The position numbers and the translations under genes were made by a program. The notes under the pieces are model-generated. The model saw nothing but the letters and a program-made list of their open reading frames with translations, did not search any database and was not told where the DNA came from. A stretch of 34,588 bases of DNA from a virus. Its lineage: Duplodnaviria > Caudoviricetes. The DNA is taken from the IMG/VR virus record IMGVR_UViG_3300020431_000001, positions 1 to 34,588 of that record; one strand, 5' to 3'. Shown here in pieces: positions 3,769 to 34,326 of the stretch; positions within the stretch are counted from its first letter, which is position 1, and each line of letters opens with the position of its first letter.

Positions 3769-4544
3769 TGTCAGAAGAATCACTCGTAGATGTAAATGCA
3801 ACCCCTGTTGCAGAGGAGTCTGGGGATCATCCTCCCACACTTGCACCAAACGAAACTCAGACTCCGCCTTTACCTGATGGTATACCAGAAAAATTTATAG
3901 ATAATGGTGTAGTTAAGATAGAAGATTTAGCTAAGTCCTATAAAGAATTAGAATCTAAAATTGGTAAAAGTAAAGATGACTGGAAAGAAGAATTAGTTGG
4001 TGAGCTTAAAGCAGAGCAAATGAAAGACAGACCAGCAGATGAAGATTCATATACAGTACCAGAGATTGAAGGCTTTACTCAAGAAGAAATACTAAGCAAT
4101 CCTTTACTAGACTGGTGGAAGAAAACAAGTTTTGAATCTGGTTTTAGTGATGAGCAATTTCACGAAGGCATTAAACAGTTTGCTGATTCTGGAGTTGAAG
4201 AAGTAGACCTAGATGCAGAAATAGCTAAACTAGGTGAAAACGCACAAGCAAGAATAGATAGTGTAACTGGCTGGGCTACTAAAAATCTTACAGAAGATGA
4301 GCAAAGAATAGCTGTAGATATTGGTGCTAGTGCAGAAGGTGTTAGATTCTTAGAGAAAGTAATGAATATGAATAAGACATCTATATCTAGTGCTGATAAA
4401 ATAGACAAGGGTACTGGTAAATTAACGATAGCTGACTTACGAGCTAAGATGCAAGATCCTAGATACCATGATCCACAACGTAGAGATCAAAGTTATATAG
4501 ATGAGATAGAAAGAGGATTCCAAAGTTTAGCTGATGGGAATTAA
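3768..4544 (+). CDS. Capsid assembly (scaffolding) protein
   Basis: Acidic; PEKF...LAKSYKELESKIG and C-terminal MQDPRY motifs of T7 gp9-like scaffolds. Confidence 0.85.
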   Translation: MSEESLVDVNATPVAEESGDHPPTLAPNETQTPPLPDGIPEKFIDNGVVKIEDLAKSYKELESKIGKSKDDWKEELVGELKAEQMKDRPADEDSYTVPEIEGFTQEEILSNPLLDWWKKTSFESGFSDEQFHEGIKQFADSGVEEVDLDAEIAKLGENAQARIDSVTGWATKNLTEDEQRIAVDIGASAEGVRFLEKVMNMNKTSISSADKIDKGTGKLTIADLRAKMQDPRYHDPQRRDQSYIDEIERGFQSLADGN

Positions 4545-5037
4545 AATACAACAACCAGATGTTGAAATGGTTATGGATCTTGCTGAAAATTTATGTGAAG
4601 AAGATATTGTTGAATGTGAGTTGTTTGGGTGCAGTCCACAAGAAGCTTGTATGCAAGCACTTATAAAAACAGACCAAGATGTTTGTTGGATGGCTACTAG
4701 AAACGATGTACCGTTATGTATGTGGGGTGTTCATAAAGAAAACCCTCCTGTTATACTAGGCAAAATGTTTAAAACATCTGGAAGAGTATGGATGTTAATG
4801 GCTAAAGATGTATCAAAGCTAGACAAGTTTACAATACTAAGAGAGTCTTTAAAGTGGGTAGAAATCTTTAACTCACACTATGATTTGTTATTTAATATTG
4901 CAGATTCTAAAAGGCAAGGTATTAAAAAGTTTCTTAAATTTGCTGGCTTTGACATACTAGACTTTACAGAGCCACCATATAGTACGGACCATATATACTT
5001 TGTGCGTTGTAACCCTAAAGATAATGTTATTCATTGA
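4534..5037 (+). CDS. T7 gp13-like (internal virion protein A / GNAT-like) protein
   Basis: NL..ED..EC, CMWGV, GRVWML, LFNI, FLKFAGF pattern. Confidence 0.65.
   Translation: MGIKIQQPDVEMVMDLAENLCEEDIVECELFGCSPQEACMQALIKTDQDVCWMATRNDVPLCMWGVHKENPPVILGKMFKTSGRVWMLMAKDVSKLDKFTILRESLKWVEIFNSHYDLLFNIADSKRQGIKKFLKFAGFDILDFTEPPYSTDHIYFVRCNPKDNVIH
5001..5010 (+). promoter_or_regulatory. Putative late promoter/activator motif TGTGCGTTGT, copy 2
   Basis: Identical 10-mer to 1726-1735, 130 nt upstream of the major capsid gene. Confidence 0.55.
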
Positions 5038-24289: not shown

Positions 24290-25326
24290 TGCCTATGCCA
24301 CCTGTACCAGAGGAAGAATTGTTAGAAGTTCTTACTGCTGATGAAAGTTTCAACAACAGATACGAAGCTGCTGAATCTTTAGGATTAAAATACGCAACCT
24401 ATATGCAAAGATTACATAAGGCTAAAAACTTACAACCTGATTTTGAAATACCAGATCTTCCTAATGAAGAGATGGACATAGAAGAATTAGTACAGACTGT
24501 AACAGATAGATACGAAAGAAGAGCTAAAGCAAAAGATGCTCAAGACTGGATTGATATTAAAGTAAATATTGATGGGCCTATAGGTATACTATGGATGGGA
24601 GATCCACACATAGATGATAACTACTGTAACTGGACTAGACTAAGAGAAGATATAAAACTTATACAATCTAACTCAGCTATTAAAGGTGCGTCTATAGGTG
24701 ACGTTCATAATAATTGGATAGGTCGTCTCAGTTTGAAATGTAGCCCTGAGCAAGAGACCACTACGGCACAGACTTATGCTCTTATACACTGGCTTATAAA
24801 CAATATGGATCCTCTTATATTAATTAGGGGTAACCATGATTGTTGGACACCGTTTCATAAGGATGCAATGACATGGATGTCACAACCTAAAAGCATTACT
24901 AATGACTGGCAAGTAAAGTTTAAATTAAATTTTCCTAATGGGTATAGTCTTAGTGTAGATTCTCGTCACGATTTTCCAGGTCACTCTCAGTATAATCCTC
25001 TTCATGCTCAGATGAAAGCTTCTCTTTGGAATAGTGATGCTGATCTGTATATTGCTGGTCATCGTCATAACTGGGCAATCCAGAAAATAGAACAACGAAA
25101 TGGGAAAGTTGCTTCGTTAGTTCGGTTAAAAGGATATAAAGATTACGATCAGTATGCTGTTGAGAAAGGGTTTTCTCAGCAGAAACATGGTCAATCAATA
25201 CTGCAAGTGATTGATCCATACTCTTCATCAGAGTCAAAACAGAATTTCTTTGAGAATCCTCAAGAAGGTCACGACTTTCTTTTGTATCTTCAAGATAAGT
25301 ATGGTAAAGATCCACATAAGAAGTAA
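24289..25326 (+). CDS. Calcineurin-like metallophosphoesterase with N-terminal HTH-like segment
   Basis: GDPH, GDVHN, GNHD, RH, GHRH metal-binding motifs; AAESLGLKYATY..RL HTH-like start. Confidence 0.85.
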   Translation: MPMPPVPEEELLEVLTADESFNNRYEAAESLGLKYATYMQRLHKAKNLQPDFEIPDLPNEEMDIEELVQTVTDRYERRAKAKDAQDWIDIKVNIDGPIGILWMGDPHIDDNYCNWTRLREDIKLIQSNSAIKGASIGDVHNNWIGRLSLKCSPEQETTTAQTYALIHWLINNMDPLILIRGNHDCWTPFHKDAMTWMSQPKSITNDWQVKFKLNFPNGYSLSVDSRHDFPGHSQYNPLHAQMKASLWNSDADLYIAGHRHNWAIQKIEQRNGKVASLVRLKGYKDYDQYAVEKGFSQQKHGQSILQVIDPYSSSESKQNFFENPQEGHDFLLYLQDKYGKDPHKK

Positions 25327-25570
25327 GAATATTTTTATCTAATACCTCTGCTTTCTTACAACCATGCATTATAGTTGAATGATCTTTGTTAAACTTGTGT
25401 CCTATCTGTGTGTAAGATAAGTTAGTAAATTTTCTTGATAAGTAATAGGATATAAACCTAGCGTTGACTATAGCTTCGGTACGTCTTGAGCTTTTGATTT
25501 CATCCCATGAAGTATTGTTATCTTCTAATACTTTATTGATAACTTTGTTAAGTGATTTGTTTTTGAACAT
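24950..25570 (-). CDS. DnaA domain IV-like (Bac_DnaA_C) HTH DNA-binding protein
   Basis: S.RR...IV.AR.I.YYLSRKFT.LSY..IG..F.KDHSTIMHG..K; likely start ATG at 25570 with AGGA RBS; C-terminal tail overlaps the phosphoesterase antisense. Confidence 0.8.
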   Translation of the reverse strand: MFKNKSLNKVINKVLEDNNTSWDEIKSSRRTEAIVNARFISYYLSRKFTNLSYTQIGHKFNKDHSTIMHGCKKAEVLDKNILTSYVDLYHTYLEDTKESRDLLEDSQRNSVLTLMKSMDQSLAVLIDHVSAEKTLSQQHTDRNLYILLTELTKQLSHFVVLFSGLPSYDDDQQYTDQHHYSKEKLSSEHEEDYTESDLENRDENLH

Positions 25571-25613
25571 AAGATTTCCTTTATAACATTTATATTTTTT
25601 TTTGGTACGCACT

Positions 25614-25717: not shown

Positions 25718-26137
25718 TTAGAACGGTATATCACTATCATGTTTCTTTGATTCTATAGCTGGTGTTGATGCAGAAGTGTCTGTGTTTGCGTCAGATTTTT
25801 TGTCAAGAATCATAATCTCTCCACCAAATGACAGCTCAACACTATACATCTTAATTGTTTTACCATCATCTGTGTCCATCTTATAGTACTTAAGATCTCC
25901 TTTGATGTATAGCTTAGCACCTTTCTTTATATATGGAATTATATATTTATCTATTGTGCTTTCATTCCAGACTACTACTCTATGCCATAATGTTTCTTCA
26001 TCATTAGCACCAGTCTTAATCTTTGTTGCTATAGAAAGTACGGCATACTTCTTGCCGTTGTTTGTTTCTTTAATCTCTGGATCATTCCCTAGATTACCTA
26101 TTAGTTCTGTTGTTGCAAGTGTACCTGAGTAACTCAT
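25718..26137 (-). CDS. ssb: Single-stranded DNA-binding protein
   Basis: LIGNLG.DPEIK, T.WHRVVVW, KKG..LYI.G.L, acidic C-terminal DSDIPF. Confidence 0.95.
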   Translation of the reverse strand: MSYSGTLATTELIGNLGNDPEIKETNNGKKYAVLSIATKIKTGANDEETLWHRVVVWNESTIDKYIIPYIKKGAKLYIKGDLKYYKMDTDDGKTIKMYSVELSFGGEIMILDKKSDANTDTSASTPAIESKKHDSDIPF

Positions 26138-26544
26138 TTTATGCTCCTGTTATCATTGTTGTTTTTAAAATCGTCTGACTCTACGTCACTATAGAATGTA
26201 GAGTATACATCAACACATTTAAGAACGACTCTATCATGCGCTCTCTTCTCTGCCATAGCCAAAGGGTATGCGTTGTGTGTATTCTTACTGCTAGTCTCAC
26301 CAAAGGATTCAATTTGTAATCCTGTTACTGTATTCTTTGCAGTTGCTTTAAGATATATGTTGCCTAGTATTTCTTTAGGCTCACTATATGTTACGATAAT
26401 TTTATTGTAAGCAGCAATTCTTTGGCAAGCTTGGTTACTTAATATCCATTGCTTGTTTTGTTTTAACTGCCATGCAAGTTTATCGTTTGGTTCTATGTCT
26501 GGGCAAAGACTTTTAATCTTTTCCCACGCTTGTTGTTTATCCAT
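26134..26544 (-). CDS. Putative ssDNA-annealing/recombination protein
   Basis: SFGE.S..N...AYP.AMAEKRA.DR..LK motif; sits between exonuclease and ssb. Confidence 0.55.
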   Translation of the reverse strand: MDKQQAWEKIKSLCPDIEPNDKLAWQLKQNKQWILSNQACQRIAAYNKIIVTYSEPKEILGNIYLKATAKNTVTGLQIESFGETSSKNTHNAYPLAMAEKRAHDRVVLKCVDVYSTFYSDVESDDFKNNNDNRSIK

Positions 26545-26548
26545 TGTG

Positions 26549-27448
26549 TTATCCTTTTAGTCTTATTGATAGGTCATTTCTTTTATTACGGCTGACCACA
26601 ACACCGTTGCAAGTAACAGACTTTGCGTCATCTGGTACTAATTCTTTGAGAGCTTCGGCTGTTTGTTTGCGTCGATCCTCAGACTCTTTGGCAGTCTGAT
26701 GCTCGACTTTATAATCGTAACTTAAGTTGTTAAACTCATTACCAAACGCTTCGTCTTTCCTCTCATCAAGATTATATATCACACCTTTGTCTGTTGCAAT
26801 CTTTAACTTCTTGTTTATATTATCTTTTGTCCAGACAGGAAGCGCTCTACTAAACTCTTCGTCATCCATCATCTCTTGCTTAAACCAATCATCAGTCTGG
26901 AAATTTTCTATTAGATCTAATATATCTTTGCATCTATCATAATAAGTTTCAATAAATTCAGAGTCTCTATATACAGTACAATAATCATGTGATGCATTAC
27001 CAAATATACAAGAGAATATTATTTCTTCTTTACCAGATACCATCATATGATGTTGTAATTGTGGGTAGTAATAAGCCATTGCTTTGTCTAATGTATTACG
27101 TTCATTAGTGTGCTTAACTTCTATAATATAACCACTATAAACAGCGTCTACTGTACTGACTAATCTACCTTGATAACGTTTAAAGTGTTCTTGTTCATTC
27201 ATTATTTGTGGAACAAAAATATCTTTATCTTTATTAAGTTTTTTGCGTAACCATTCTAAGTGAAATGACTCAGTTAATATACCTAACTGTACTGGTAGCA
27301 CAGCAGACAAATCATCTGGATCTTTGAGAAAGAATTTTTCTTTCATCATGTTGGTTATCTTTCCGGTGGCTATACTAATAGCATCACTGCTACCTATTTT
27401 TGTACTGTAGTATAGCTGTCGTTCTCCTTCTTTATATTCATCGTTCAT
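26549..27448 (-). CDS. YqaJ/lambda-exonuclease family recombination nuclease
   Basis: IGSSDA, STVDA, IIEVKH, YYPQLQHHM motifs. Confidence 0.85.
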   Translation of the reverse strand: MNDEYKEGERQLYYSTKIGSSDAISIATGKITNMMKEKFFLKDPDDLSAVLPVQLGILTESFHLEWLRKKLNKDKDIFVPQIMNEQEHFKRYQGRLVSTVDAVYSGYIIEVKHTNERNTLDKAMAYYYPQLQHHMMVSGKEEIIFSCIFGNASHDYCTVYRDSEFIETYYDRCKDILDLIENFQTDDWFKQEMMDDEEFSRALPVWTKDNINKKLKIATDKGVIYNLDERKDEAFGNEFNNLSYDYKVEHQTAKESEDRRKQTAEALKELVPDDAKSVTCNGVVVSRNKRNDLSIRLKG

Positions 27449-27451
27449 TGT

Positions 27452-28009
27452 TTACTCCTTAAGTTGTTGGCATACTTGTTTATGTAAAGTGATTAAGTAT
27501 TTTTTAAGTATGCGTTTTGGTATATCTACTTCGTTACTGTACTTAATCAATACAGCAATAGTAGGGTAGTCACCTGTAGTTATTACTTTAGTACAGGCAT
27601 ATTCCAAAGCTACTAAACTGTATTCTTTTAGTGCTTCGTAATATAAGTTAATAAAATTATCAGCATCGTTATCTGGTATTATTTTGGGCCAAAGTAAAAA
27701 TACTTTAGACAACAGCTCAACAAATGCTTCTTCATCTAATGGTACTAATAACTTAGTAACATTAAATAGATCTGCTTCAACATCATCTAAGGCATTACTT
27801 AGTTCTGTCTGAGATAGAGATGATGGTATCTCTATTTGTGCTAGAAACTTTACTCCTTCCAGATATTGCGTTGCGAATTTTGTCAGCGGCATCCGTGCTT
27901 TCTGCAACAGGGTATTCATCTGTCCATCTTCCTGATTGTAGCCAGTTGTTTGCGTGCTGTGTGTACTGATTTGATTCTTTAATAAATTTTTTGTATCGTC
28001 TTGCTCCAT
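27452..28009 (-). CDS. Putative helicase loader/replication accessory protein (start uncertain, probably downstream of 28009)
   Basis: LYYEALKEY....LEYAC......YPTIA.L resembles phage loader-type proteins that follow initiators. Confidence 0.5.
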   Translation of the reverse strand: MEQDDTKNLLKNQISTHSTQTTGYNQEDGQMNTLLQKARMPLTKFATQYLEGVKFLAQIEIPSSLSQTELSNALDDVEADLFNVTKLLVPLDEEAFVELLSKVFLLWPKIIPDNDADNFINLYYEALKEYSLVALEYACTKVITTGDYPTIAVLIKYSNEVDIPKRILKKYLITLHKQVCQQLKE

Positions 28010-28172
28010 CTATTATCTCCTCCGATGTTGCATCACCATCTTGTATTGCTAATACAAAGTAGTATTGTGCTGACCACTTGTTAGTATGTAGGGGGTACTG
28101 TTCCCAGAAAGAATTAAACTCTGATTCTAAGTTAGCTTTCTTTAGGTCTTTTGGTTTTAATATTTTCATCAT
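27795..28172 (-). CDS. Replication initiator-like protein (C-terminal-domain type)
   Basis: F..FW..YP...K..A and H...WL...RW.DE motifs seen at the C-termini of phage replication proteins. Confidence 0.6.
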   Translation of the reverse strand: MMKILKPKDLKKANLESEFNSFWEQYPLHTNKWSAQYYFVLAIQDGDATSEEIIDGARRYKKFIKESNQYTQHANNWLQSGRWTDEYPVAESTDAADKIRNAISGRSKVSSTNRDTIISISDRTK

Positions 28173-30674: not shown

Positions 30675-30947
30675 TTAAACTTGCTTGGTAAACTCAAGTT
30701 CATACTCACCTTTATTAAGATGGGCCTCTACTAATACTTTGTTGTTAATAGAAAACCTAAAGGTTTGAGATCCGTCATCATTTTTTTTATGTGTAACTCT
30801 GTGGTCACATAAAGTGTGACTGTTCATAGATGATGTGCCTACTTTAATAGTAACACAACCATCTTTTCTGTTACCGTATGACTTACTGCCTTGATACAAA
30901 CAGTTAGTCACGTCATTCCATATTGGGTATTGTCTAGTCATTGTCAT
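30675..30947 (-). CDS. Hypothetical early protein
   Basis: AAGGAG RBS; YPIWN.V..C.Y..SKSYG motif. Confidence 0.7.
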   Translation of the reverse strand: MTMTRQYPIWNDVTNCLYQGSKSYGNRKDGCVTIKVGTSSMNSHTLCDHRVTHKKNDDGSQTFRFSINNKVLVEAHLNKGEYELEFTKQV

Positions 30948-31187
30948 CTCCTTTTGTTATATCTGCTTGCACTTTTAAAGTCGTTCCATCCCAACAGATT
31001 AAAAGATGGTGGTGACTATTAGAATTTTTTTCTGTTGTTCACCTAGTGTTTTACGAAAGTGGCTTTTACCCTGGGGAAAGGGAAGCCGGTGGCATTAGCT
31101 ACGTGCCTCAATTCTTCACCAGATGAACAACATAGTCTGCAAAGCATTGTTAAAAATAATGATTTAACAATAACCGTTAAATGCAGA

Positions 31188-31218
31188 CAAAAGAATAGCC
31201 GAATAAATCGGCTACTCT
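31188..31218 (-). terminator. Rho-independent terminator of the 204-aa gene
   Basis: The - strand reads agagtagccga-tttat-tcggctattct-tttg, starting 10 nt after the stop codon. Confidence 0.7.
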
Positions 31219-31228
31219 AAATCTTAGA

Positions 31229-31843
31229 TTACTTTATCTTAGATAGTTTTAGCTTTTGTTCTTTTAACAATTGCTCTGTTGACTTAACCGTAACTGATGG
31301 TTTCTTAGAATCTTTATTCCATCTCTTTTGTTGGGCTACCTGATATTCATTATAAGTTTGACCAAAGAAGAATGTCCAAAGATAATCACCAGTATAGAGT
31401 CTTTTCTCTTTCGCAAACTTATCTAGCTGTGCTTGGTTTAAGTCGATGAAAATGTCATGCGTATTTAGTCTAGCTAAAGCACCAAGTTCTGGTGAATGAA
31501 AAGGTCGACCATTTTCATCGGTAGTACCATCTCTAAGAGATTCTTCTTCGAAGTTCTTAAGCATTTTAGAGATGTCTGCGTCAATCCAATCGTTTTCTGC
31601 CATAATTTGGTGATACTTTTGTTGATGGATTGTTATGCTTCTAGTGAAGCAACTTATATTATGATTAACTTCCTTAAGTTTACCTTTGATTAAGTCTCGG
31701 GCTATCTTATTTGGGTAGTGTTGACCAGCTAAATTACCATTAAGGTAAATTCCAGCTCTCTTACCATCCTTGTAAGTATCTAACTCTGAAACGGAAGCGT
31801 TTAGTAGTTCCTCGACGAGGTCGTTTTGATTTTTTAAAGACAT
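31229..31843 (-). CDS. 204-aa orphan protein forming the left arm of the inverted repeat
   Basis: Intact ORF with AGGAGA RBS, own promoter and terminator; no family recognised. Confidence 0.8.
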   Translation of the reverse strand: MSLKNQNDLVEELLNASVSELDTYKDGKRAGIYLNGNLAGQHYPNKIARDLIKGKLKEVNHNISCFTRSITIHQQKYHQIMAENDWIDADISKMLKNFEEESLRDGTTDENGRPFHSPELGALARLNTHDIFIDLNQAQLDKFAKEKRLYTGDYLWTFFFGQTYNEYQVAQQKRWNKDSKKPSVTVKSTEQLLKEQKLKLSKIK

Positions 31844-31879
31844 AGTTATTCTCCTATCTGTCTGTTAATGGGATATACC

Positions 31880-31907
31880 ATTATGCTAACCCCACATACA
31901 TTTTCAA
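31880..31907 (-). promoter_or_regulatory. sigma70-like promoter for the 204-aa gene
   Basis: The - strand reads TTGAAA-16 nt-CATAAT, with an A-tract upstream; -10 about 36 nt before the ATG. Confidence 0.6.
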
Positions 31908-32049
31908 ACGAACTCTTTTTTGCACCCTCTTGGGGGTATATGTTTCATAAAAACATATACGAATAATATCTGGAAACAAGAATCGCCGGAAAGCTTGCTT
32001 GAGGAATCGACTGAAATACTTCAGTCGTTCTATTCTTGGTGTAGGATAT

Positions 32050-32819
32050 TGCAAAATCGGATTGAATCTGTATTTGTTGGGTTTGCTTTGGTATATGCTT
32101 TTGACAGACAGATAGGCAGAATGACTAGTCTTTACAAAAGCGAAACGCCCTCGGCGTTGGAACTGCTTAACGGTTGCGTTTCAGAGTTAGAAACTTACAT
32201 CTCCTCGCCTTGGGCGTGGTGAGTAGGATGGTCTGGAATTTCCTTGATGGTCATTTAGATGTGTTGTCAACACACCCAAATGAGATGGCACGTGACTTTA
32301 ACAAAGGTAACTTAAGAAGTTAATTGTAATATAAGTTAGGTGAACTTGAAGTATCACAAGCCATCAAGAAAATATCCCAAATTATCAGAAAAGGATGGAT
32401 TGTCCAGACTTCCTAAAATCTTAGAAGTTCGGAGAAGAATGTCTTAGTAGATGGTCTCCGATGACAATGTCACCTTTTCACCACCAGGAGTTGGCGGTTT
32501 AGCAGACTAAATGCATGACATTCTTCATTGACTTAAGCCTAGCACTGCTGATAAGTTTGCCGTAAGAGAAAAACGAATAGACTGGTAGGTTATCTTGGAC
32601 TTTATTCTTTGGTACAAACTTGTTATGAATATGAGGTAGGCAAACAAAAGTTTAGATGGAATAGATTCTAAGGAATCGTCAGTTGCTTAAGTCAACAGAG
32701 TGATTGTTAAAAGTTACAAACGCTAAACTATCTACGATTAAGTAATCTTGATTTAGAGTAGACTATTTATGAGACCTATTCTTAGGTCTGCTTTTAACAA
32801 TCAACAATGCTTTGCAGAC
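32050..32819 (+). pseudogene. Non-coding inverted mirror of the 204-aa transcription unit (probably a structural arm rather than a simple pseudogene)
   Basis: Start codon deleted (ctATGtc -> ctagtc), RBS interrupted (aggaga -> aggcaga), -10 destroyed, many frameshifting indels; residual translation ELLNGCVSELETY vs ELLNASVSELDTY. Confidence 0.8.
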
Positions 32820-32977
32820 GGTAGTTACAACCATAGCTATCCTGATAATACTATAATGTAGATTACTCGAATCTAATAAGTCAATCAGCCGTGTTGTCAC
32901 TTCGTGACTGCCCGCACCCAGACTGTTGACTTTTAGATTACAAGCAATCTTGTGATTGCGTATAACAGGAGATAACT

Positions 32978-33163
32978 ATGGACATAACTACTCAACAAAA
33001 CATTGCAGATATTATGATTACAAGCACTCTTTTCTTAGCAGTCGCTATACTAAGCTATGTAACTTACATCGCATTTAAACAAGAATTAACGCTCTGGATT
33101 AGAATACCAGCACTTATCTTAGCGATGCTAAGTCTAGTGCTTCTGTCATTATCTGGACTATAA
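32978..33163 (+). CDS. Small two-TM membrane protein
   Basis: AGGAGA RBS; two hydrophobic helices. Confidence 0.7.
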   Translation: MDITTQQNIADIMITSTLFLAVAILSYVTYIAFKQELTLWIRIPALILAMLSLVLLSLSGL

Positions 33164-33264: not shown

Positions 33265-33648
33265 ATGTCTAAAGTACCCAGTACAAATAACCAATCGCTG
33301 ACACAGCTTCAGCAGAGTTTTGTAGATAACTACTTAGCCAATGGTGGCAATGGTAAACAGGCTTGCATAACGGCAGGATACAGCGAGAACTCAGCTCATG
33401 TTCAGGCGAGTAAATTGGTTAAGCTTCCACACATACAGCAAGCCTTACTCAAAGGTACTGCAGAAGCCATTGGTCTAGGCTCTGCTAAAGCTGTTCAGAA
33501 GTTAGTGTCTCTATCTGGCGGAGCTAAGTCAGAGTATGTTCAGCTTGAAGCATCTAGGGATTTATTAGACCGTGCTGGATTTAAAGCACCAGATAGAGCC
33601 GATATACGGCTTGATAGTGATATAAAGATTAGTATTGATTTAACGTAG
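33265..33648 (+). CDS. terS: Terminase small subunit
   Basis: LT..Q..FVD.Y...GGN...A...AGYS..SA...AS.L...P.I; SEYVQLEAS.DLLDRAG; GAGG RBS. Confidence 0.9.
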   Translation: MSKVPSTNNQSLTQLQQSFVDNYLANGGNGKQACITAGYSENSAHVQASKLVKLPHIQQALLKGTAEAIGLGSAKAVQKLVSLSGGAKSEYVQLEASRDLLDRAGFKAPDRADIRLDSDIKISIDLT

Positions 33649-33991: not shown

Positions 33992-34143
33992 TGGTAAAAA
34001 GAAATCAACCACCACACCGCCCAAGGGTAGAAGAAAGATTGGCACACTGCGTGCAATGTCAAAGAAGTCTAAGTCGTACTGATAAATACGTCATCAATAT
34101 GTTAGATGATTTTACTTGCCTAGCCTGTTACGAAGGTAGATAA
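33991..34143 (+). CDS. 50-aa CxxC...CxxC zinc-finger-like protein, absent from the ORF track
   Basis: TAATG coupling; MVKRNQPPHRPRVEERLAHCVQCQRSLSRTDKYVINMLDDFTCLACYEGR. Confidence 0.65.
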   Translation: MVKRNQPPHRPRVEERLAHCVQCQRSLSRTDKYVINMLDDFTCLACYEGR

Positions 34144-34326
34144 ATGGATAAATCTAAAAAGAAAGAACAAAGTGGTATTGATATACTAGGAAAATTCCTT
34201 GAATCAGAAGATAGTATGGAATGTTCTAAATGTTCTACGAATATAAACTTTGATGATAATTTTGTTTTTACACACGACAGTAGATTGTTATGTAGAAGTT
34301 GTTTTGAGCATAGTAAATGCAATTAA
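34144..34326 (+). CDS. 60-aa CxxC...CxxC zinc-finger-like protein
   Basis: CSKC...CRSC; starts right after the previous stop and overlaps the terL start. Confidence 0.65.
   Translation: MDKSKKKEQSGIDILGKFLESEDSMECSKCSTNINFDDNFVFTHDSRLLCRSCFEHSKCN

Follow-up and report, generated by a model that had tools for sequence, protein, structure and literature searches.

We report that, in the phage genome analysed here (the window, a stretch of 34,588 nucleotides), an entire leftward gene is paired with a non-coding mirror of itself, that this mirror is a copy co-evolving with the gene and kept by selection, and that, in the long rods formed in this way, the selection for folding is confined to the template strand (+) of the gene.

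The initial annotation had described the two arms as collinear reverse complements, and self-BLAST bears this out: positions 31176-31907 align with 32798-32062 at 604 of 769 columns (79% identity, 69 gap columns, E 3e-147), the stem pairing reaching slightly further than first described, to 31925/32049. The gene arm (31135..31925, + strand) holds, as template strand, the whole unit of terminator, CDS, RBS and promoter, and the non-coding mirror arm (32049..32819, +) has the same sense as the mRNA; in the DNA fold, the stretch 31926..32048 (+) forms an apical loop with two small hairpins. The rod ends in a perfect outer stem of 17 bp (31135..31151, partner 32803-32819; +; self-BLAST), and within the arms the longest perfect runs are of 15-16 bp. 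A side hairpin is inserted in the mirror at 32200..32222 (+), with a longer insert at the same place in the mirrors of two related loci (L001 and L012), and the intrinsic-terminator-like hairpin of the gene (31192..31218, − strand) is covered by the mirror. As had been claimed, the mirror has lost the ATG, RBS and reading frame of the gene: neither a start codon nor an RBS is found at the corresponding position, and reading through meets 11 stops. Folded as DNA, the + strand reaches -534 kcal/mol, whereas 15 dinucleotide shuffles give -168 ± 8; in this fold 82% of the bases pair, and 653 of the pairs are long-range. This is the only long inverted repeat of the genome (strict fold-back score 593, genome median 15). 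It is confirmed as real and not a product of assembly, an artefact being ruled out by single contigs from independent DNA runs that span 31119-33053 (run X3), 31119-32814 (X8) and 31462-32490 (X2). Contigs of these three runs cross the loop and one or both arms; a further run, X11, gave short pieces only.

The window represents a complete circular phage genome of 34.5 kb with a 77-nt terminal overlap. It belongs to a podovirus encoding terminase, portal/head-tail connector and capsid proteins, and among cultured phages it is closest to Pelagibacter phage EXVC031P Hodr (OQ414635; portal 64%, capsid 63%); we infer a marine alphaproteobacterium as the host. The gene for the terminase small subunit (33265..33648, +; PF03592, E 7e-14) is the landmark that fixes the slot discussed below, namely the first leftward gene just upstream of it. 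Among the 12 window proteins scanned, primase, polymerase and helicase are absent and one YqaJ/RecE-like exonuclease is present; a protein with a DnaA C-terminal helix-turn-helix and this exonuclease are encoded at 24950-25612 (−) and 25718-28172 (−), respectively, adjoined by SSB-like and annealing-protein-like genes as judged by eye. By eye, too, contig ends do not cluster sharply enough anywhere to mark a physical end of the genome.

The mirrored gene itself (31229..31843, −) is an ORF of 204 amino acids with an AGGAG RBS, and it is the first of a leftward operon that is likely the early operon. The gene had been regarded as an orphan, a description that has to be abandoned: homologues of its product at 47-49% identity occur in other phages at the same slot, and the protein groups with the 210-215-aa first-gene products of sister phages. 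The family is all-helical and has no assigned function, the 204-aa protein gaining no Pfam, PHROG, PDB-sequence or Atlas assignment, and no additional relatives emerged from a profile search against 1.8 billion representatives. Its structure model is poor (pLDDT 42). There is a weak link (hhalign probability 32%) to a second family of first genes, encoding proteins of 134 amino acids, which is modelled confidently (pLDDT 91) as a three-helix bundle that includes a long helical hairpin and for which Foldseek gave no match at E 0.001 or better. The sole match to the 134-aa family among 185,579 species genomes (L093) lies on a contig in an archaeal MAG and is probably a mis-binned phage. Because ArdC-like genes come after the slot in Hodr and L001, an anti-defence role for the 204-aa gene is plausible.

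Relatives with the gene and no mirror were sought as a refutation, and the mirror was found in all seven homologue loci with enough upstream DNA, which represent three lineages and include L008, the same phage (L003 and L011 were excluded for missing upstream DNA). A mirror is 80-84% identical to its own gene and 62-64% to the gene of another lineage, shuffled sequences giving 55-61%. The covariation between arms that had been expected across genomes is likewise seen: in the comparison of L001 with L009, paired sites changed on both sides number four and are all still Watson-Crick, that is, there are four double changes from one Watson-Crick pair to another against 0.4 expected, and changes confined to the mirror fall on 9 of 95 mismatch sites versus 4 of 622 paired sites. 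Covariation is modest among 11 pairs from the 134-aa family, for which the pairings come from a loose aligner. Gene and mirror together make up an exchangeable cassette (31133..32843), replaced in the near-identical genome L013 by a different cassette of 1.5 kb, whose 214-aa gene is distantly related and forms a shorter rod of its own; the same allele occurs in two other runs. Beside the rod of L013, about 500 nt of non-coding DNA (4050-4560 of that sequence) are densely filled with separate local hairpins showing no strand preference. Common to both cassette alleles is a short structured non-coding segment at window positions 31021-31132, with variable DNA on either side; in other strains it is joined directly to 30621, the 90-aa ORF at 30675-30947 being dropped.

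The terminase small subunit led us to 80 loci, and the 64 of them with at least 1 kb of upstream DNA were scored. A fold-back at the slot scores at least 25 in 44 of these 64 relatives, as against none of 52 downstream and none of 51 further-upstream control stretches, the loci being redundant and the controls mostly coding. The rod at the slot always involves the first leftward gene; it mirrors the whole gene in L085, L090 and L092 and the promoter with the 5' part in other loci, and in Hodr it measures about 700 nt and extends into the terminase gene. In Hodr (L005, 11942-12635), as well as in L034, L036, L047 and L050, the mirror arm continues into the 5' coding region of the terminase small subunit, part of which doubles as mirror. 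Under strict scoring, 58 of 72 loci with a first gene of the 134-aa family score at least 40 (controls 0 of 59), with the core of the rod most often located from about -70 to +50 around the start codon; a looser scoring, by which all 72 were positive, was set aside because control DNA aligned nearly as well (107-173). The cultured relatives MEP301, Vibrio 22O28-1, SI2, ZP6 and Skadi-6 have no such fold-back, and the equivalent slot of HTVC010P has a weak AT-rich one only (score 41). This last fold-back (L176, 34563-34892 plus 1-70) lies over the start of the first leftward gene and straddles the end of the GenBank record, its partner arm apparently containing an unannotated rightward ORF.

The way in which the arms mismatch indicates which strand folds. 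On the + strand of the window, the appositions comprise 25 G·T, 21 T·T, 16 A·G, 12 G·G and 10 C·T, with A·A (3), A·C (3) and C·C (0) being rare, while simulated neutral decay of the same arm gives about 22 G·T and about 20 A·C. The ratio of G·T to A·C is skewed in the same direction in all six long rods (25/3, 30/1, 17/2, 32/1, 56/1 and 27/1), in each of which G·G also exceeds C·C; the bias is absent from the short rods of Hodr, L013, L014, L016 and L018. This strand asymmetry upholds the proposal of the initial annotation that the element is selected for single-strand folding. Its second proposal, that a perfect palindrome is avoided, stands as well, the mismatches being spaced more evenly than chance: the longest perfect run in the alignment is 15 compared with 26 in simulations, the spread of run lengths is below that of 60 out of 60 simulations for the window, L001 and L090, and an earlier partition test gave significant under-dispersion in 6 of 11 rods. 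Energies say less about the kind of nucleic acid involved. Isolated mismatches from a looser aligner are better explained by DNA than RNA parameters (lnL -394.6 vs -406.2, n=385), a gap that closes once the alignment is strict and 3-bp flanks are required (-207.9 vs -208.5, n=194). As RNA, it is the + strand that folds far better (-882 vs -762). Support for DNA comes from the promoter geometry, from the RNA contigs and from the fact that the favoured strand runs antisense to the mRNA. Two further ideas about the sequence of the arms were dropped: avoidance of restriction sites in a heteroduplex, since palindromic 4- and 6-mers are intact as often as by chance in five of five rods, and hairpin-loop motifs (seven C-GNA-G on the + strand, none on the − strand, few UUCG/GNRA), which are too few and redundant.

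An ordinary sigma-70-like promoter of the gene, TTGAAA-16-CATAAT (31880..31907, −), is likely used in double-stranded DNA. By eye, a candidate fold-dependent promoter, TTGCAA-16-TATTTG, can be made out on the mirror (32049..32076, +), the gene-arm partner of its box being GTGCAA with about 5 extra bases; the mirrors of L001 and L012 have TTGAAA-18-TAGTGC and TTGTAA-18-TATCTT, opposite gene arms that, again by eye, show GTG.. and a looped-out hairpin. The pattern is more regular in the 134-aa family. A TTGCGA-like box is kept in both arms; behind it the gene arm has about 15 bases more than the mirror, in most cases as a small hairpin. From 67 loci we hand-picked 27 near non-redundant ones in which each arm has the box inside preset distance windows, the others being duplicates or having no match there. 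In these 27, the box is 46-53 nt away from the 5' hairpin of the mRNA on the gene arm, against 25-34 nt on the mirror. An A at -11, with a spacer of 17 or 18, is present in 26 of the 27 mirrors versus 8 of the 27 gene arms, loci which share ancestry and hence are not 27 independent cases. The 134-aa gene arms have no correct -35 spacing, some of them carrying an extended -10. The mirror promoters of this family mostly do without a T at -7, an absence that PMC8407463 presents as usual among alphaproteobacterial promoters. From these sequences we infer that, in the 134-aa family, a normally spaced sigma-70 promoter, with its start right ahead of the 5' hairpin of the mRNA, would exist only with the template strand folded, because the extra bases of the gene arm then loop out; the rebuilding of promoter spacing by the fold appears clear in that family and weaker in the window. 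The mirror boxes could instead drive rightward transcription in double-stranded DNA. In L094-L173, about 95 nt upstream of the first gene, we also observed a conserved three-way junction, in whose gene arm the TTGCGA-like box is followed by an invariant CAAG/CAAC and a small hairpin; a second conserved hairpin just before the RBS is broken in the mirror.

RNA contigs from four runs of three studies cover the gene arm in all four, at depths of 5-11, and in each run they end at 31870-31871, which fits the ordinary gene-arm promoter at 31907-31880; the start of the candidate mirror promoter would lie near 31888. Short pieces of mirror RNA occur in one of the four runs, contigs attesting presence and being weak evidence of absence. 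These data count against an abundant rod RNA, and they show that the bulk expression of the 204-aa gene is independent of folding. The strains of RNA runs X15-X17 have a deletion of the 60-aa ORF located between the terminase genes (window 34131-34316).

We put about even chances on the rod being a gene-length, Frpo-like transcription template of single-stranded DNA. The template (+) strand would fold back on itself with the mirror standing in as the non-template strand, and the fold would offer host RNA polymerase a duplex promoter and a duplex continuing through to the terminator. From established knowledge, a partner strand along the whole gene would let the mRNA be released, and scattered mismatches would stabilise the palindrome while the DNA is double-stranded and stop the mirror from acting as a gene. 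The likeliest single-stranded moment would be entry, provided that the slot lies at the first-injected end: were the other strand missing or resected 5' to 3', the + strand would be left as a 3' tail. In lambda, the region just upstream of terminase is packaged last and injected first; by analogy, the slot would be injected first and resection would expose the 3' end of the + strand. We know of no single-stranded stage in double-stranded podoviruses of this kind, which counts against the reading. A precedent for the proposed fold is Frpo, which, according to PMC9849209 and PMC11541004, folds on the entering plasmid strand and thereby rebuilds its -35 and -10 boxes. According to PMC2241882, bacterial RNA polymerase on single-stranded templates makes RNA of only about 20-30 nt, and RNA release requires upstream rewinding, a requirement that would explain why the mirror reaches the terminator. 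Against the template reading also count the RNA ends of the 204-aa gene, which fit an ordinary duplex promoter, the short rods that lack a strand bias, and the genes behind Frpo, whose transcription from single-stranded DNA needs no mirror of gene length. The more specific scenario, in which double-stranded marine podoviruses of a widespread family deliver, or have their host resect, a kilobase-long single-stranded 3' leading end that snaps into a heteroduplex gene with a fold-only promoter, amounting to a conjugation-style programme of single-stranded expression in tailed phages, is a tentative one that we hold to be possible but on balance doubtful.

Other explanations of a selected fold deserve consideration. 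If a + strand RNA ran through both arms, it could form a bulged rod evading RNase III and act as a decoy, scaffold or antisense sink; in the long rods G·U outnumbers every other apposition, the + strand does fold much better as RNA, and the energy-model test is compatible with this. We nevertheless consider it rather unlikely, as the contigs that cover the gene arm are nearly devoid of mirror RNA (contigs attesting presence only). The strand that is favoured, being antisense to the mRNA, could not occlude it in cis; a conserved -35-like box spaced as in a promoter is meaningful in DNA; and no Rfam match was obtained. A single-stranded DNA fold might alternatively serve replication or end protection, as an origin primed by RNA polymerase, a snap-back 3' primer or an end cap. 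The same strand bias and promoter geometry would speak for such a role, as would a set of 12 scanned proteins without primase, polymerase or helicase and with a YqaJ/RecE-like exonuclease, and Frpo, as Masai and Arai reportedly found in 1997, also primes DNA synthesis. It is an unlikely role all the same: priming needs no such extent as that of the long mirrors, which end just past the stop codon or terminator (window, L001, L085, L090 and L092), and gene and mirror are exchanged as one cassette. We deem it improbable that the mirror boxes are a rightward promoter of terminase and that the fold transiently regulates an early/late switch, on a displaced strand or in a cruciform driven by supercoiling. 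The promoter consensus of the mirror is indeed better than that of the gene arm, and the mirror reaches the terminase gene in Hodr, L034/L036 and L047/L050, but a cruciform is argued against because it needs both strands to fold and only one is tuned, L001 has a separate consensus promoter to the right of its mirror, and little RNA crosses the mirror.

Two explanations that need no folded template fare worse. A decaying inverted duplication whose arms are kept alike by gene conversion, with a functionless fold, would also make each mirror track its own gene. Conversion or drift, however, predicts symmetric mismatches and long perfect tracts; the observed 3 A·C against 20 expected, the longest run of 15 against 26 and the location of changes on mismatch sites do not agree with this. 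Simple decay or gene conversion is excluded by the strand-biased mismatches together with the short, even runs, and covariation, run lengths and one-strand bias largely refute a gene-converted palindrome, which leaves this explanation very improbable. Finally, the element could be imagined as a DNA copy of a deltavirus- or Obelisk-like rod RNA replicon, a thought prompted by its exchange as a cassette and by a size and layout (1.7 kb with an ORF of about 200 amino acids on one side) resembling those of hepatitis delta virus. The idea is scarcely credible: neither a ribozyme/Rfam match nor a circularising joint was found, there is almost no mirror RNA, the protein groups with first-gene products of this phage family and partial rods occupy the same slot. 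It was rejected on the missing Rfam match, the RNA contigs and the kinship of the protein.

Among known systems, the closest parallels to the single-stranded template reading are Frpo1 and Frpo2 of the F plasmid and ssi of ColIb-P9, which, as described in PMC9849209 and PMC11541004, are likewise non-coding imperfect inverted repeats upstream of first-expressed genes. As in these elements, it is the template strand of the gene behind the fold that is tuned (window G·T/A·C 25/3), and anti-restriction ArdC-like genes follow, here in two relatives. That one strand, by folding, would rebuild the -35/-10 geometry is predicted from sequence for the 134-aa family (26 of 27 mirrors), the window having a candidate read by eye (32049-32076). 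Unlike Frpo and ssi, the phage mirror spans the whole gene to the terminator with about 770 nt per arm, it resides in a tailed double-stranded phage, for which single-stranded transfer is not known, and not in the leading region of a conjugative element, and the 204-aa gene also has a normal duplex promoter. No sequence similarity to known Frpo or ssi elements was seen, the comparison with 72,556 plasmid records giving one 48-nt match inside the CDS. The rod would thus work like Frpo if the best reading holds, yet it is not a member of that family.

Strand-specific imperfect rods are also known from the single-strand origins of rolling-circle plasmids and the minus-strand origins of filamentous phages, where host RNA polymerase recognises them; these origins are not known to mirror a coding gene, and no Rep or HUH protein was recognised among the window proteins scanned. 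Hepatitis delta and Obelisk RNAs are circular replicons that fold in both polarities, often with ribozymes. The phage element resembles them as an unbranched rod of about 1.7 kb, about 75% paired, with short helices and an ORF of about 200 amino acids on one side, and differs in being phage DNA that folds in one polarity, with no ribozyme found in Rfam; in the four RNA runs, whose contigs are weak evidence for absence, no circular joint was found and the mirror arm was almost uncovered. The early-promoter hairpins of phage N4, which span a few base pairs and serve a virion polymerase, would under the best reading share with the rod the use of single-stranded DNA hairpins for early transcription. 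Terminal hairpins of poxviruses and parvoviruses are imperfect as well, and they are not known to carry, on one arm, a gene with a co-evolving mirror. The injection stop signal of T5, made of inverted repeats in non-coding DNA of the region injected first, differs in having short repeats and DnaA boxes and no gene mirror (10.1101/866236). In the literature searched, mostly outside the subscription journals, we found no account of a mirror as long as a gene from any tailed phage.

With Pelagibacter phage Hodr (OQ414635) as a cultured carrier, the question is open to direct test. The usual assumption is that tailed phages enter the cell and begin transcription as double-stranded DNA. A gene-long fold-back, specific to the template strand and maintained by compensatory change at a fixed slot, would imply that abundant marine phages pass through a stage in which kilobases of one strand are single, and, if the template reading is true, single-stranded promoters would extend from plasmids to Caudoviricetes. 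The rod would then mark the gene that needs to be expressed first, and it would constitute a natural design for the expression of a whole gene from one strand.
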